This document shows positions 3,001 to 58,831 of a stretch of 64,000 nucleotides of DNA, one piece after another (position 1 is the stretch's first letter; each line of letters begins with the position of its first letter). Both the position numbers and the translations under genes were made by a program. The notes beneath the pieces are model-generated. The model was not told where the DNA came from. It did not search any database and saw only the letters and a program-made list of their open reading frames with translations. This stretch comes from Catajapyx aquilonaris (lineage: Eukaryota). Location: positions 62,001 to 126,000 of the forward strand of contig KZ537955.1 in the NCBI GenBank assembly GCA_000934665.2. Reading direction: 5' to 3'.

Positions 3001-3898
3001 CGATTCGTACCAATCGGCAACGCTACTGTACATTTTTAATCGTTGTGATCTTAATATTTAGGAGACACCTTTTTTTGTATGAAATTGAGATTGCCACACT
3101 CCCGGAAACCTTTTTTTTGTGTGTGTGTATGTATGTCCCGCTGCTGCGTGACCTCTATTCGCACGCGTGGTTCACTTGCAGCTCATGTGGAAAAGAGAGT
3201 GAACCCCCCCCCCNCCCAAAAAAAAGTGGGAAGTTGAACGTGTTTTTTTTACATTGTTGTTATTAGATGTGGCAACACCGCTAGAACCATAAACGTGATT
3301 CCGGTAGGCTCAAAAATCACGATAAGTGTAGCGTTGAAGTTTGGCCCAATTCCAAAGTAAGGATAAATTGAAATCTCATATTCCCCCTCGAAGCAATTTT
3401 TGTGTGCAATTTTTTGTGACTACCAGACGTATACAACCAACCAGAGAAGAAAGTGGGTCACACTCATCCGGGCGCTGAGAGGATTTGCACCCAAAAAAAA
3501 TCGGTTGGCAACAACCCGAAAAAAATGGTCCTAATTTGGGACTCGTGGTTTTTAATGGACGTATGGGGTCAGGCCTTTGTTTCCCCGCCAATGATTCGTC
3601 GCGTCACGAACTGAAATTATGCAGACAACACGTGCGCAGAACAAGTTTTAAATGTTTTTGTGGGCCCGGGGAAAAGGTTGGTGCCTGGCACTGTTGATCG
3701 GTTGGTTTAGTCTGGTCCAAACAGTGATGGCCGACTGGAGTGAAAGTGGGCGTGGGAATGGGCGTGGCTTAGGTTGCGCGCGCTCCGAACCGACCAATCG
3801 TAGATCAGCCCGGTATGTTTTCATGGCGCTCTGTTTACGTTGGTGGAACTGCTTGGAGTGATCGGTCGATAAGTTTTGTTGCTGGGCGGGAATCTTGG

Positions 3899-49400: not shown

Positions 49401-52400
49401 CCTCACCTCATCATGCATCTATCGAGGCGCAGAATTTGATCAAGAGCGGGAAACATCCTCATCCTGCGCACTCCATCCCGCCGGAGAGGGTGTACGGCGT
49501 TCCATACAAGATGGCCTACCCACCGCCATACATACAGGGCTATGCTCCAGTACCTCCTGCACCTATGGCAGCTCCCAATAAGCCGAAGGTGAGCAGCCCT
49601 GCACCTCAGCAGATCTATGGAAAGCCATCTGTTGGGGTTGGCATAACTGCCGGGGTTCCTGTGTGTCGTGTAGACACACCAGTACCCCTCATTTCCAAGC
49701 CTGCCTACCAGGCACCCCCAATGCCGGTTGGGCCACCGCCACCACCAGCTCATAGTGCAAGCCGAGTAATGTATTCTCCCAACAAGTCACCAGCACCGTC
49801 CACACCCCCAGCACCAGCACAGTGCCAACCACTTGACTTGGCCGGTGTGCCACCAATTGGTTCCACATCACCCAAGAGAAAGGCTGAACCTGAGGATGCT
49901 GCAGCTAAGCGGCGGAGGAGTGACACCCCAGTACTGGCAAGGGTGAGTGAGCCAAGTCCGCTGATGGCTGGTGCGGCCAGCACTATCGCAATGGTGGTCA
50001 ACACTGCAGTGGCGACAGTTACATCAATGGCAACAACAACAACTGTTGCTGCCCCCACCACCACCACCACCCCTGCTCCTGCCCATGCACCTCCACCGCA
50101 GCCTGTGCCAGAGCGTTCTGCAAGCCCACAAGTCAAGTCCAGCTACCCTGTTCACAAGCTCAAGAAGGCATGGCTTGAACGCCATTCTGGTGACAAGGAC
50201 AAGACCGAGGTGGCAACACCAGCTCCAACACCTCCGCCGGCACCGCCTCCACCAACTCCTCCATCACTCCCAAAAAAATTAGTTGGGAAGCCTGGTCGGA
50301 AAGGGAAGGACAAGAGACCCCTCATGAATGGGCATGCTGACAAGGCGCCGGATGAGTCCAGCAGTTCAGCCAGTGAAACCGAAGTGAAGTTAGCCCCAAA
50401 GCGTAAACCACCAAAGGTGAAGAAGAAAGGGAAGGGGCGCGTCAAGACCAAGAAACCTGTTGCCACTGCCCCAGTGCCTAGTGATAGCCAGTCAGACAGT
50501 GACAAGGAGAGTGGGAGTGATAAGGATTCAGATGACAAGCGCAAGACCAAGGAGGCAAAGGAGCCTCGTAAAAGGGGACGTAAGCCGAAATCTGCGACAG
50601 GTGCCACCAATGGGAATGGTAGTGCCAACTTAAATGGTGGTGGAAGTGAGGACCGACGCCCAGCCAAAAAGATGAGGGAGGACACGTCAGGGCCTCCTCA
50701 AAAACCGTCACAACCGCCTTCACAACCGCCTCCGTCACAAGACCCCTTTCGTAAACCACCAGTTTCTCAGCTGAAGAAGACGGGGGAGAGCTTCCTGCAA
50801 GACGGGCCTTGTTGGGAAGTCGCCCCAAAGCTGGGTAAATGCAGGGAATGCAGGTGGACGCCACACCAACGGAGCAAGAAGATGAGCAACATCTTCTGCC
50901 GGTTCTATGCCTTCAGGCGTCTGCGGTATACCAAGAACGGGCAGCTGGCCATTGCAGGATTTTCCCATCCAAAGAGGGACGCTTCTGAGGATGACCTGAA
51001 GCTCTGGCTCCCACAGAGAGACAACCCTCCAAAGGATCTTGACATTGATATGTCAAGGTTCCTCCTAACACAGGTAAAGACCAAACGTTATTGGCTTGAT
51101 ACTGTACATGTTTGGAAGTTACCTTTAAAAAAAATTCACATTGCTGTAAGCAGCATGATAAGCTAATGTGACCATTTGTGCACAAAACACATTGAATTAA
51201 TACGCAATAAAATAGCGCATGGAATAGAAAAGCAGGCATGATGAAATTTCTGATGGCATAATACAATACACTAGGGCATAATATGCGAGAAGTGCAAGAC
51301 TAAGAGGTTGTTTCATCATGTTGGTGAGATGTCTTGCCAATATGTTATACTGATGTAATGTTGGGTTGATATGGGTCTTATCTCATCTTGCGTGCATTGA
51401 TAGTCCCATTCCATAAATCATCGTGCTTCATTACAAGGTTATGTGCACTTGGCATGTTTAGCGGACTAATTGCTGGTGCAATTCCAGCCATGATTATTGA
51501 TCTGCAGGCAAACAATGGAAGTTAAATGCACAGGGTATAATCTTGATAATAATGCGCCCATTCCTTCATTTTACGAGGACTGGTTGTAAATCAATGAATT
51601 GATTTGTGGTTGAGCACACTCAATTTATCATGATCGTTATTTGCGAACTGTTAAGAGGCGACATGCTTGAATGTCAAAAGCATTTTTAAAAAGTCAGCCC
51701 ATTTGTGAGATACAAATCTATAACCAAGACTGACATCATTTGCATGCATGTCAGCTTTTCTGATAGGTGATGTGCTGGGGATAGTGTTTTAGGTGTGTCA
51801 TAGGTCAATTTATTTTAACTTGATCCGATTCAACTCTGCAAGTGATGAGATCAGTGAGAATTGAAATGCAATGAAAATTACCAATCTGAGCTCTTTAACC
51901 GTCTGATGCAGTGTTGTTATTATTTTTACAATGTACTGATGTGAACAAGATCGTGTGTTTCAATGCCCTTTGCTGTATTTTTGGGACAGGTTGGGGACCA
52001 GTTCTGTGATCTGGTGGTCCAAGAGAAAGAAGCGGTGAAGATTCACATGGGTGAAGAGAAAGATAAGGATGCCGTTGCGTGGAAACGAGTAGTGCAGGGT
52101 GTACGCGAGATGTGTGACGTGTGCGAGACCACACTATTCAACTACCACTGGGCCTGTGGGAAGTGTGGATTCGTAGTGTGCATTGACTGCTACAAGGGAC
52201 GGCGCAATGGGACCATAAAGGTGTGGGGGGAGACCGGGAAGGACAGGGATGAGTTTTCCTGGCTGCTGTGCACCAACCGGCAGATGCATGAGCAGGACAA
52301 GCTGATGCTCACGCAAATCATAGCCGGTGAAGCCCTCACACAGCTCGGAGGACAGTTGCACAGGATGAGGCATCGGTGGGGGATTGGGCAGTACTGTGAT

Positions 52401-55400
52401 TGTGAGGAGAGTAAGCGGCTCAAAGAAGAAGGCGGAAGCATCGTCACGGCAGGTGCGAACGGTATTTGCAAGGATTTGGCCAAGGGTGTGAAAAAAGAGC
52501 CGGTGAATGGCGTCATCAAAAGTGAACCAGGAGCGGAGAAAGAGGAAGGTGGGAGTGACGTAAAGCAGGAGGAGGGCAACTCTGCCCTCAGCTGGCTGGC
52601 CGATGTGGCTCTTGGTGAGAAGAAGGAGGCCTGCGAGGTGAGTGTGGCATGTTGGTTGTTTTTACATGACGGTGTGTGCATCTTGAGTTATGATGGAATG
52701 ACTTTAAGAAAATATTGTTATGACAGTTGTTGTAAGACTAATAGAACTGCAGTAGTGCTTCCCTGTTTCTTCCCGTAATAAGAGTAGCTTCCCGCATTTT
52801 CATTATTAAAGTTGCAGACTTCTTGTACAAATGGATAATCCAAACAAATATTATTGCATAAGGAAGAACACTGACAAAGCTGTTGAGACAATTGATATTG
52901 ACATGTGTTATGAAAACATGCCTGCATTTAAATGCTAGAGAGGAAAATAATGCTACGGATCTGTTTCCATAGGCATGTGGTGCCGTTGCTACTTTTAAAA
53001 ATAGTTCCGTACAAAATATTTACTTTTGCGTGTGTTGCATTATTGCAACTAACCTTGCATTTTTTTTTGTGGTGTTGTTGACTTGTACTGATATGGAATC
53101 ACTGAAGATGCATTGACAAACATGGAATGCTGTGGTGTGATGATAACTAACTGAACGTTAGCCTGTAACAAGGCTATGGCGAGATATCATAGCCGTTTAC
53201 CCATCTGACACTGCATCCAATCACTGTAGCCGTGAGACCTGAGTTGCTGATGAAACGTTACTTGATTTGGTGATTATGTTACAGCCATTCTACAATGTGT
53301 TGTTGTTGCAGGATTCGGCCAGCACCACCGATTCTGATGAAGAGAAGGGTGAGAACTACTCCACTCTGCGTGAACTTCTGATCCGTCCTTCTGGAAAGCC
53401 TAATGGCAACAGTGGCCAGGCATCTTCACCTGGCACTCCCACCACGTCCTCAGGGGCATCCTCTACCACGCCTGCTCCCCGCCCCCAAAAGAAGCTCAAG
53501 GTGGAGACCACCTTAGACGAAGTGATATCCCATGTGATAGAGCACAGCGTGGAGAAGCATGACCACCAGCGAGGGGAACAGGTCCCGATGGTGCTGAAGC
53601 ACTTTGTGAGGAAAGTGTGCATCCCACAGAAGGGAAGGGAACCACTGCCCATCCGTATCATGACGCTGGCCGAGAGCACCTTGCTCTACCCCAACCTGCC
53701 ACACACGTGGCTTTGTGATGGGAAACTGCTCAGGCTTCATGATCCCATCCATGATAACAATTACAGGATATTCCAGGTAATTGGCTGCATTTGGAGCTTC
53801 AGTTGATATCTCGGATATAATAATTTATAAGGTGTCTTGATGATGACAACTTGAATGAAAGAATTACTGTGGTTACACAACTGCGTTCTTCACTGAGAGA
53901 CCATGCATAATTTGCTTTTAGTAACGAAGAAACAAAGTTCATTGCTGTGACTTCACTGTTGAGGACCAATGTCATTAATTCCACACTAATGGTTTGCAAT
54001 TGTTTCTTTTAGGACCAGTGGAAACGTGGGCAGCCCATAATGGTATCAGATGTGTCCAAGAAACTGGACATTGAGAACCTCTGGCACCCTGATGCATTTG
54101 CGAAAGACTTTGGGGACGTGAAAAATGACCTGATCAACTGCATGACAGGCAACATTGTCCCCAACCAGCCCATGAGGAAGTTCTGGGAGGGGTTTGAGAA
54201 CTTCTCGAAACGCCTTAAGGATGAACGGGGCAACTACATGCTTCTGAAGCTGAAGGACTGGCCGCCTGGCGAGGACTTTGCGGAGCTGCTTCCCTCCAGG
54301 TTCCAGGACCTGATGAAGGTCCTGCCCCTGTCTGAATACACACACAGGAACGGAAGGCTGAACCTGGCAAGCCGTCTTCCAGATTCGTTTGTGAGGCCAG
54401 ACTTGGGACCTAAGATGTACAATGCGTACGGCTCTGCGCTCTACCCAAGCAAAGGGACCACCAACATCCACTTGGACATCTCAGATGCTGTCAACGTCAT
54501 GGTGTACGTAGGGATACCAAAGGACGGCGACGACGACGAGCACATTAAAGGTTTGTTTCCCTCGGATTTGAGTTTAATATTTGGCAAGAATGTTAGGCTT
54601 TTTATTATCGTACTCATGTGAGTGTGATTGATTGAACAAATCGGTATCAGTGGCTGCAATGATGATGATTGATTGATTTTGAATCTCTGTGAAAACTTAC
54701 ATCATCGAGCTCTTTAACCATCTGATGCAGCCTGTACCGTAGCCCTTTCTTAACCACATCATCGCCAGTTAGCTCCATCTGATTTATCCGTTTCTTCCAA
54801 TTTACAGAAGCCTTGAAGGCTATAGATGAAGCGAGCTGTGACATACTGACCCGACGCAGGGTCCGTGATAAAGGAGAACTCCCTGGAGCCCTGTGGCACA
54901 TCTACCATGCTCGAGATGCAGACAAGATCCGCGACCTGCTGAACAAAGTGGCCCTGGAGAAAGGCGAGAAGCTGGAGCCGTACCACGATCCCATCCATGA
55001 CCAGAGCTGGTATCTGGACTCAACTTTGAGGGAGAGGCTCTACAAGGAGTACAGCGTAGAGGGGTACGCCATCGTGCAGTGCCTTGGAGACGCAGTCTTC
55101 ATTCCGGCTGGGGCACCACATCAGGTTAGTTGAACTAGTTGCCTTTGTTATTAGCTGCGTAAACTGTTGTGGCTTCTGCATGTGATGTGACAGTGATGTT
55201 ATTTGAAATCACGTGATTATTTTACTAAGCTCTTTAACCGTCTGATGCAGGCCTGAATATTTGTTTGGCAAATAAACTTGCATCTACTTTTACAGAAATT
55301 AACCATGCATTAATTTTTAACAGGTTCGGAATCTACACAACTGCATCAAAGTGGCAGAAGACTTTGTGTCACCCGAGAATGTGGGCCACTGCTTCCACCT

Positions 55401-55683: not shown

Positions 55684-56896
55684 TTTGTGTTCCTGACAAT
55701 TCAATGTGCTATGATCTCATGTTGTTTGGATGGGGCGGGGGGGGGAAAAGAAAAGTCCGTCTTGGGGCATCGCTCACATTTTCCCTCCCCACCCTCCACC
55801 TCCAATGGACTTGGGTGCAAGAGTGACGTAGGGAGTGTGGGCCATATTGAACGTTTGTTGCGCTCCTTCCGCGCAAAAGTATCCCGCCCCCTCGTTTCTC
55901 GGCATTTTTGATCTCAAAAAGGTATTTGTGAAGCAAATTTGCACCGATGGACCATTTTTTTTTGTGGACACAGTGAAAGTGATGGAGGGCCTTCGAAAGA
56001 TTGGGCCTACTTGTTGGGCGTTCCATTAACTGTAAATAAGTATGTGTGTGGACATTTTTCTTCTCATCATTTTTTTTTTTTCTCCAAATGGTGTAATGTG
56101 TTTCATTGGGGGGTTTTTTTTCTTCTCAATCGATGAAAGCAAGTGTTTATAATAATTATTGTTACAAATTACTACAATTATTACCTTTATGCCAGGATTT
56201 TAAAACCATAAAAAAGAGCCATAACTTATTCCCCCCCCCGTCACCACCTGCTTTGTATAAGGGAATTTTCAGGTACATGGATAGGTGTGTGAAGAAGTGA
56301 AAAAAAGTGCATTTTTTGAGTGGGCGGTCTCCCAATGTATAAAGACAAAAAAAAACTAGATGTGTACATAATGGCATTACACATACAGTGTGACCTCCCT
56401 CTCTCCCCCCCCCCNNNNNNNNNNNNNNNNNNNNNNNNNNNNNNNNNGCCCCCCCCCCTTTTTTTTTGTTAGTGTTGAAGCCCTATTTGAAGGAGAGGAA
56501 AAAAAACGTTGGGGCAATTTTTTGTACTGTGTATAGATACGGAAAAAAAAGACGTTTAATAAGAAAAGATGTTCATATACACCAGCTGTGTTTATTTAGC
56601 TTCCCTCATTGCATTCGCCTTAGCAGCCTGTCATGTACTATAATCGCTCAAAAAAATGGGGAGACGATTGTGCATTTGGATTCAATGCAAAATCATTTCC
56701 CATCTTCTTGAGCGATATGAGCCATCGTTTTAATGCCTGCGAGATCGTAACCTTGCAATAATTTCTGTATTGCGTGGAATTACTGCCCTTCATTGCGTTA
56801 GTTCTCAACTGTCGCTTGTTTTCGCAAAAGTTTCAATGAATAGGAGTCACATCTTTGCAAAAGAAGGTCAACTGAACCATTTTAAACAAGGAACAA

Positions 56897-57181: not shown

Positions 57182-58831
57182 TCATTTCCTGATCTTCTCA
57201 AGGACCTTCTCCAGCCTCTCCAAAATGGTGCCGACGTCTTCTTCGGTCATGCCGATTGCGGCAGCGAATGTCAGGTACGCCACGGGGTAATTATTGCAAT
57301 GGGAGCCCCATCCTATAAAGTGGTGGCCTGCAACTTCTTTGGCCTCATTCGGGGCAACGATCCTGGCTCCCGAAACACCTCGTAGGAACAACATGGAGCC
57401 AATCTGCGTCGAGTCTTCAGCTTCAGTCAGTGAACTGTCGATTGTCATGGCCATTGATACAGGGTTGGACTTTGTTTCCAGCACCTTCTGTCCGTACTTG
57501 GATGCCAGCTCCTTCAGTTTCAGCTGCAGGTGGGTGAAGACCCTGGACCTTTGGCAGCTCAGGCTGCGGAAACCAGACGCACCCATGGACAGGAGAGTGA
57601 TGAAGGTGTCCATTGACGGGGAGGCCGAAGCACGTCCTGGATAAGTGCGGCTCACCCTCTGGACCACCTCTTGGTCAAACCCTGCCACAATCGTGCCGCC
57701 CACTGGGACCATCAGGTTTTTGTCTGTGCTCTGGACAAACAGATCTACACGTCCAACTCTGCAATATTAGTGATCAGTGAGTGTTTTAATAACATACGGA
57801 TGTAAATAGCGTACCTTGAAGCTTCCTGAATGATGTGCATGCATTTCGTGCTCTGCAGTCCATACGCATTGTTGATCAGATGGGGGATGTCGAATTCTGC
57901 GCATAACAGTGCGACTTCCTCGACTCGGTCAGAACCCCTGGGTGCAAAGCAGCTTGTTGTGGTCATCACAGCTGCAATGGCATCCGCCCCTTGCGTCTCA
58001 ATCTCCTTCCTGATAGCGTCGACGTCGGTCCGTAACTCGTCTCCTTCCAGCACGTTCTGAACCACAATCGGCTTGAACCCAGCCGACACCATGCTCTTGA
58101 AGCACGACTTCTGATCAATCCGTGGCCATATGACGCACGTGGCTTTGGGCCTCATCTGTCTGAACGAAAGCATGCAAAGGCACAGGGTCATCCCAGTCGC
58201 CATCGGACACAGGAAGCAACCCTTGACTTTGGACGCTCCTGCGGTTCGGACCACATCCAGCAGCATGGAGTTGGTCAAACCGTTGAGCAGGCTGGACCCC
58301 GCCGCTTTTGGCTGCACCTCCGTCAGATCACCAGACCGCCCCACACCATGCGACAAATAGTAGTGCCGCTGCATCACCAACCTGGAAAACACTCTTCCTT
58401 CCCGCTCGCCTCCACCGACATTATGCGGAAAATTGTTAGAGTCCATCAGGGCAAGATCACGCAGGAACAGCTCAATAGTAACATCGTCCCAGCCATCCTC
58501 AGGCCATTTCCCCTGCAACAATGTGTCACATCAGATGGATTCTTCAGGAAGAAGAAGAAAACATTCACCCATGTAGCACGAATCGCCCTGGAAAATCCCA
58601 TGGATATCCAGATATCCATGGGATCTCCAGTGGATATCCACAGGATCTCCAGTGGATATTAGGATATCCATGGGATATTCCAGGGCGATTCGTTCTACTT
58701 GGGAACAGTTCCATTACCTGTTCGATCAAATGTTTGATCGCATTTTCCCTCGTCTTTCTCGCCTCCTGAGCTTGCATCAGGTACGTCTTTGGGAGGCGTC
58801 GCTCCGCCACTCTGAAGCTGTCCGGGTTCAT
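57182..58831 (-). CDS. SEPSECS: O-phosphoseryl-tRNA(Sec) selenium transferase (SepSecS); complement(join(57182-57758,57815-58512,58718-58831)), about 462 aa
   Basis: Motifs [58 protein letters not shown] (PLP lysine), YPGRAS; GT-AG introns of 205 and 56 nt; phases consistent. Confidence 0.97.
58568..58703. mobile_element. Palindromic MITE in SEPSECS intron 1
   Basis: About 40-bp inverted arms CCCATGTAGCACGAATCGCCCTGGAAAATCCCATGGATATCC / GGATATCCATGGGATATTCCAGGGCGATTCGTTCTACTTGGG; internal GGATATCC and GGATCTCCAGT repeats. Confidence 0.8.

Follow-up and report, generated by a model that had tools for sequence, protein, structure and literature searches.

Three intronic SNORD36-like box C/D snoRNAs of Catajapyx aquilonaris share a guide register shifted by two nucleotides on 18S rRNA

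We analysed a 64,000-nucleotide (nt) stretch of Catajapyx aquilonaris DNA (hereafter the window; GenBank assembly GCA_000934665.2, contig KZ537955.1, positions 62,001 to 126,000 of the forward strand) and found three related small nucleolar RNAs (snoRNAs) of the box C/D type in three separate introns of a KDM3B-like JmjC histone demethylase gene. The gene and the three snoRNAs, designated copies 1 to 3, lie on the + strand, and all coordinates refer to the window. We are highly confident that the copies are paralogous, intron-encoded derivatives of SNORD36 (U36, snR47) that pair with the SNORD36 segment of 18S ribosomal RNA (rRNA). The guide of each copy is separated from box D by two added bases, and a shifted 2'-O-methyluridine (Um) is the most likely consequence of this register. 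The combined statement, that SNORD36-derived paralogues act on 18S rRNA with a lineage-specific, shifted Um, is our preferred reading, and we hold it with moderate confidence.

The copies share an 18-mer, AGCTCTTTAACCRTCTGA, which comprises the guide and box D. A search of the 64-kb window with up to two mismatches allowed returned three + strand occurrences, at 51889-51906, 54708-54725 and 55228-55245, and all three were exact. None of 100 dinucleotide-preserving shuffles contained any match at the same tolerance (0/100), giving a chance expectation of 0. A simple box scan indicated that each occurrence lies at the 3' terminus of a complete box C/D unit. Copy 1 occupies 51836-51911 and contains box C at 51842-51848 (GUGAUGA), a D'-like UUGA at 51861-51864, a C'-like box at 51870-51876 and box D (CUGA) at 51903-51906, closed by the terminal stem CUGCA/UGCAG; its guide, at 51889-51900, is followed by two bases, GU, at 51901-51902. 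Copy 2 (54653-54731) contains box C at 54659-54665 (AUGAUGA) and box D at 54722-54725, and its guide at 54708-54719 is followed by AU at 54720-54721. Copy 3 (55175-55251) contains a variant box C, GUGAUGU, at 55182-55188 and box D at 55242-55245, with the guide at 55228-55239 followed by GU at 55240-55241.

Box C/D snoRNAs were recognized by a box C near the 5' end, a CUGA near the 3' end and a terminal stem joining the two, and these features were present in all three copies. The stem CUGCA/UGCAG is common to them and measures 5-7 bp overall, being lengthened by different pairs in copy 2 (6-7 bp, with two added G-C pairs) and copy 3 (6 bp, a U-G pair included). It directly abuts CUGA, and the distance from the stem to the GA of box C is 3 nt in copies 1 and 3, as in kink-turn geometry; together, these two features fix CUGA as box D.

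A three-way alignment of the copies was used to compare their conserved and diverged parts. The block that starts with the guide and closes with the terminal stem (23 columns) gave pairwise identities of 22/23, 23/23 and 22/23, whereas the snoRNA interior gave 20/40, 19/41 and 20/42 (~48%) and the flanks 2/10 to 3/13 on the 5' side and 3/11 on the 3' side (~25%). This contrast suggests that the guide is under selection in the register it now has, and the pattern argues for a selectable role of the shifted guide. The initial annotation of this locus had described box C/D snoRNAs with a guide and box D recurring at about 51889, 54708 and 55228, a retained box C and internal D'/C'-like pair, and divergence elsewhere. 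That description holds in each part: complete C, D', C', D units were found in 3/3 copies, with the boxes reading RUGAUGN, UUGA and xUGAxx, in an otherwise diverged sequence. The D' guides differ between the copies and from the Rfam SNORD36 consensus.

SNORD36 (RF00049) was the best Rfam family for all three copies, in agreement with the earlier view that SNORD36/snR47 is the nearest guide. Copy 2 scored 37.7 bits and passed the gathering score of 30; it was the only Rfam match in the 64-kb window at gathering thresholds, and no canonical SNORD36 was seen in the window in the same scan. In the cmscan alignments, the guide was aligned to the SNORD36 consensus GAGCUUUUUAACC. All three copies showed the same two departures from this consensus: a C replaced the third U of the guide, and two nucleotides were inserted between AACc and CUGA. 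The initial annotation had headed the locus as a possible orphan or novel guide fitting no recognized target cleanly, and had named an Rfam match to a described family with a known target as the result that would remove the novelty. SNORD36 is such a match, and the orphan claim is not supported; it is weakened further by the pairing results below.

The rRNAs of other eukaryotes were used as stand-ins for that of C. aquilonaris, whose own 18S presumably reads alike at this segment. Two Rfam-confirmed ribosomal DNA (rDNA) units served as references: L059, with 18S, 5.8S and a complete 28S, and L060, with 18S, 5.8S and 28S up to model position 1268. The query of the target scan was the 16 nt upstream of box D. 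By pair score, every copy had its best site at the SNORD36 segment of 18S in both units, at 16-21 versus at most 10 in 5.8S and 28S. The D guide was complementary to the 18S segment GGUUAAAAAGCUC, with 14-15 positions paired in the two 18S sequences. The energy of the duplex at this site was -14.4 to -19.8 kcal/mol, and the site ranked first in 4/6 guide-by-unit tests with sliding windows. The D' guides found no convincing target in the reference rRNAs; their best matches were G-U-rich and inconsistent between copies.

On 18S, the C that the cmscan alignments show in place of the consensus U stands against an A in 3/3 copies, as the initial annotation had stated; it falls at guide position 10, and this C-A apposition is the only internal non-pair of the guide/18S duplex. 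As a wider stand-in for the 18S of the species, the 18S site motif, with R allowed at the mismatch position, was sought in prokaryote assemblies and gave 50 loci; the pattern fixed all other site positions, and the sample is biased accordingly. Among the 50 fetched loci, 49 were 18S-like (72-100% identity to L060) and every one of them (49/49) carried A at the mismatch position. The single G-reading locus, L001, was rejected as 18S, being GC-rich bacterial coding DNA. A/C pairs occur occasionally in predicted functional guide duplexes (PMC8817022), and C opposite A therefore has a precedent.

We then examined the register of the guide on 18S. In all three copies, guide position 5 upstream of CUGA, an A, was opposite the first U of GGUU (U668 in L059, U613 in L060), and the canonical SNORD36 A was opposite guide position 7, so that the family register, with A at position 5, is not kept. 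It is the two added bases before box D that move position 5 to this U, which lies two nucleotides 5' of the canonical A. The claim that box D lies 2 nt further away and that the D+5 rule points to this U was thus confirmed. The two bases themselves had been taken for a spacer, and this part has to be revised, since guide positions 1-2 are able to form base pairs with the two bases that lie 5' of GGUU in 18S: copies 1 and 3 form G-U plus C-G on the GCGG type of 18S, and copy 2 forms G-U plus U-A on the GUGG type. According to the Introduction of PMC8522698, the fifth-nucleotide rule holds exactly. PMC8817022 mentions departures by a single nucleotide (+6) in Dictyostelium and zebrafish, and we know of no two-nucleotide exception in these two papers. 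The A itself is a conserved 2'-O-methyladenosine (Am): Am612 in Dictyostelium (guided by CD25), Am619 in yeast (snR47), Am668 in human (U36A/B) and Am621 in Arabidopsis (AtU36) (PMC8817022, Table 1). We give even chances to a Um as the product, on the leading U of GGUU and thus two nucleotides 5' of the universal A.

The intronic position of the copies was established with contigs of run X5, which behaves as a set of spliced RNA contigs. Host exons matched the JmjC domain (PF02373) at E 6.6e-11, and the exon at 54013-54549 matched human KDM3B (chain 4c8d_A) at E 5.7e-69. A 2480-nt spliced contig crossed four GT..AG joints, defining introns at 52638-53311, 53777-54012, 54551-54807 and 55125-55323 and exons at 51990-52637, 53312-53776, 54013-54550, 54808-55124 and from 55324 onward. 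Copies 2 and 3 lie in the introns at 54551-54807 and 55125-55323, and copy 1 lies in the intron at 51074-51989, whose upstream exon end (51073) was traced from the loose end of another X5 contig; all three copies are therefore intronic, as previously proposed. The end of the snoRNA is 78, 76 and 72 nt from the 3' splice site in copies 1, 2 and 3, respectively, distances that agree with the optimum known for the processing of intronic box C/D snoRNAs. The X5 contigs do not cover the introns and are uninformative either way on the expression of the snoRNAs.

One additional observation concerns copy 3. In run X1, which consists of DNA contigs, the 48 nt at 55176-55223 (+), from the first base of the terminal stem to the U-run of copy 3, formed a separate node with a depth of 77.5, versus ~29 in the DNA around it. 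From this node, branches lead to other flanks, which have the same 13-nt motif on both sides; the window itself lacks this motif. One or two more partial copies are thereby suggested elsewhere in the genome, possibly inserted with target-site duplication.

If the preferred reading is correct, a SNORD36-type ancestor would have taken up two bases beside box D and exchanged a U for a C in the guide. The ancestor with the shifted register would then have been copied into three introns of the KDM3-like gene, and the copies would have diverged since then everywhere but in the boxes, the terminal stem and the guide with its shifted register. Each copy would be freed from its spliced intron and trimmed to the core protected by the snoRNA ribonucleoprotein, that is, the terminal stem and the C/D kink-turn to which Snu13, Nop56, Nop58 and fibrillarin bind. 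The 3' guide would pair with 18S over 14-15 positions with the single C-A apposition at position 10, and the product would be a lineage-specific Um beside or in place of the universal Am.

Several points weigh against this proposal. Regarding the family, copies 1 and 3 matched SNORD36 with 27.9 and 21.2 bits at permissive thresholds, under the gathering score of 30. Regarding selection, the case is built on three sequences of a single genome, and metagenome contigs yielded no orthologue from another species. A search of these contigs with the pattern AGCTYTTTAACCN{0,2}CTGATGCAG gave ten loci, all of them (10/10) in the 22-nt form with one intervening base; they were rejected as snoRNA orthologues, as 9/10 shared a similar coding-like flank and none (0/10) had a box C upstream. 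Matches to GGTTAAAGAGCT with up to two mismatches in four prokaryote assemblies containing contaminant rDNA were at background level only. Expression of the copies is presumed.

Regarding the target, the best energy window of copy 2 on L059 was in 5.8S, at -19.0 versus -18.0 kcal/mol for the 18S site, and the five best energy windows of copy 3 on L060 were all outside the 18S site. The longest unbroken duplex through position 5 was 7-9 bp in 18S and 9, 8 and 9 bp in L059 28S; these lengths are similar, and unbroken-duplex length thus fails to separate the targets. A species-specific stretch of the L059 5.8S (3365-3523) pairs with the copy 2 guide about as strongly as the L059 18S site does, and by this case a ranking by duplex energy alone can mislead. 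It is from the 18S of other eukaryotes that we read the C-A apposition and the base pairs at positions 1-2, and these would carry over to C. aquilonaris only as far as its 18S agrees. Moreover, the mismatch is five pairs from the target and methylation may be lowered or abolished by it.

Regarding the product, a Um two bases 5' of the Am is not in Table 1 of PMC8817022, the supplementary tables of which may hold low-confidence 2'-O-methylated nucleotides (Nm). Table 1 of PMC11014333 lists no site of Drosophila 18S between Um586 and Am1061, its supplement again being a possible place for low-confidence Nm. Drosophila thus appears, from that table, to lack this 18S site altogether and to offer no Um precedent. 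A literature search for a printed 18S Um by the names Um666, Um667, Um617 and Um618 found only 26S-Um667 of Neurospora, a weak result as numbering differs between species; a search for SNORD36 in invertebrates found nothing relevant. Thus, being absent from the tables of PMC8817022 and PMC11014333, the predicted Um is without precedent there.

The copies could instead still serve the canonical A by a non-canonical spacing, or act as an 18S folding chaperone without methylating, in which case the register shift would have no chemical consequence. We regard this as unlikely, although it is the strongest of the alternatives. From Dictyostelium to human the Am is retained (PMC8817022, Table 1), and loss of its guide might be costly; +6 exceptions are known in Dictyostelium and zebrafish (PMC8817022), and no canonical SNORD36 was seen in the window. 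However, such a gene may exist elsewhere in the genome. In addition, the A is opposite guide position 7 under a rule described as exact (PMC8522698, Introduction), and another choice of box D is opposed by the abutting stem and the 3-nt kink-turn geometry of copies 1 and 3.

A second alternative is that the conserved C pairs with a real G, either in an 18S that reads GGUUAAAGAGCU in this lineage or in another RNA, with a perfect complement of 12-14 nt, that has captured the guide. Candidates for the latter are a small nuclear RNA (snRNA), a transfer RNA, a messenger RNA or an rRNA expansion segment, and the likeness to the SNORD36 site would then be ancestral only. The C is identical in 3/3 copies despite an interior identity of ~48%, a neutral C-to-U change would improve the pairing with A and is not seen, and the R at guide position 2 suits a U of the target in both of its variants. 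Nevertheless, identity of a neutral site among three copies by chance is not rare, and A/C appositions are present in predicted working guide duplexes (PMC8817022). The 18S-like loci all carry A (49/49, in a biased sample), the lone G match being the bacterial coding DNA of L001, and the conserved 12-nt block had no partner in the 5.8S and 28S of L059 or in the 5.8S and 5' 28S of L060. We consider a true-G target improbable. The narrower version, in which the SNORD36 descendants now pair perfectly with a non-rRNA target of the RYGGUUAAAGAGCU type and keep the invariant C and the two bases for this reason, we hold to be quite improbable; if it were true, an ancient universal rRNA guide would have been captured for a new substrate and multiplied into three copies in a chromatin-regulator gene. 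U6atac as such a target would, we presume, leave the conserved guide positions 11-14 unexplained.

Finally, it is very improbable that the copies are decaying or unexpressed relics whose 3' block was kept by gene conversion rather than function: their expression is inferred, the box C of copy 3 ends in U instead of A, the D' and C' boxes are degenerate (UUGA) and the D' guides differ among copies with no convincing rRNA target, but the 23-nt block ends exactly at the guide and stem boundaries within diverged sequence, unlike a conversion tract, the terminal stems are retained and extended by different pairs, and all three copies lie 72-78 nt from the 3' splice site in unrelated introns.

The host gene carries one box C/D snoRNA in each of five consecutive introns (51074-55323), the two others being designated snoB and snoC. 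snoB (53132-53216, +) lies in the intron at 52638-53311. Its D guide, GCCGUUUACCC, formed a perfect 11-bp duplex with the 28S segment GGGUAAACGGC, with position 5 on G2483 of the L059 28S, the G before UAAAC, and it also has two bases (AU) before CUGA. Its score for the Rfam family sn2343 (RF01172) was 20.6 bits, far under the gathering score of 60. The sn2343 consensus likewise has the guide GCCGUUUACCC, two bases and then CUGA; in sn2343 this guide precedes an internal CUGA, whereas in snoB it precedes the terminal box D. By yeast and human numbering, we take the G at position 5 to be probably human Gm3723. This numbering was anchored on Am2256 = Am3739 (PMC8817022, Table 1). Human 28S Gm3723 is assigned to SNORD87 in Table 2 of PMC13507652, and snoB resembles SNORD87 in this presumed site. 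The probable landing of snoB on a known site is a partial internal control for the counting of positions.

snoC (53834-53901, +) lies in the intron at 53777-54012. Its D guide formed a perfect duplex of 12 contiguous bp with the 5.8S segment UGAAGAACGCAG, with position 5 on G41 of the L060 5.8S. No Rfam family came near its gathering score for snoC, and no Nm at this position of 5.8S is known to us from the tabulated model species.

Other structured elements were observed downstream of the snoRNA introns. The segments 55719-55815 and 56641-56718 can form hairpins and gave weak, sub-threshold matches on both strands to several precursor models of microRNAs (miRNAs). At 58571-58700 (+), a long and almost perfect hairpin gave a spurious match to AEV_CRE (47.4 bits versus a gathering score of 100) and, on both strands, weak matches to miRNA models; this hairpin probably represents an intronic or flanking inverted-repeat element.

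If the shifted Um is real, a 2-nt insertion by box D would have moved the target of an ancient guide from a universally methylated A to a nearby U, and the shifted register would since have been maintained by selection in the three paralogues. This would be a clean natural example of a 2'-O-methylation site shift in rRNA evolution and would bear on whether a universal Am can be lost. Otherwise, the locus is an ordinary one, a KDM3-type gene hosting five intronic box C/D snoRNAs, which is useful for annotation. The family, the target segment and the intronic multi-copy organization are already known. New here are the retention of the register shift by three paralogues, together with the invariant C, and a host of the KDM3 type in which five introns bear snoRNAs.

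Compared with SNORD36/U36 (human SNORD36A/B), the copies share the box C/D layout, the D-guide core GAGCU.UUUAACC, the 18S segment, and an intron-encoded organization with several paralogues. The D' guide of SNORD36 has a second target in 28S in some members and is optional; in the copies, the D' guide region departs from the Rfam consensus and varies from one copy to another. Human SNORD36 genes are hosted by RPL7A, whereas the host here is a KDM3B-like gene. RPL7A is also the host of SNORD24 (PMC13507652, Table 2). CD25 has a second target in 26S, whereas none was evident for the D' guides of the copies in the reference rRNAs. The copies differ from SNORD36 further in the C that stands for the consensus U and in the two added bases before box D, by which the canonical A comes to position 7 and a U to position 5. 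The guides snR47, AtU36 and CD25 address the same conserved 18S site and are assigned to the A, whereas the three copies of C. aquilonaris point two bases 5' of it.

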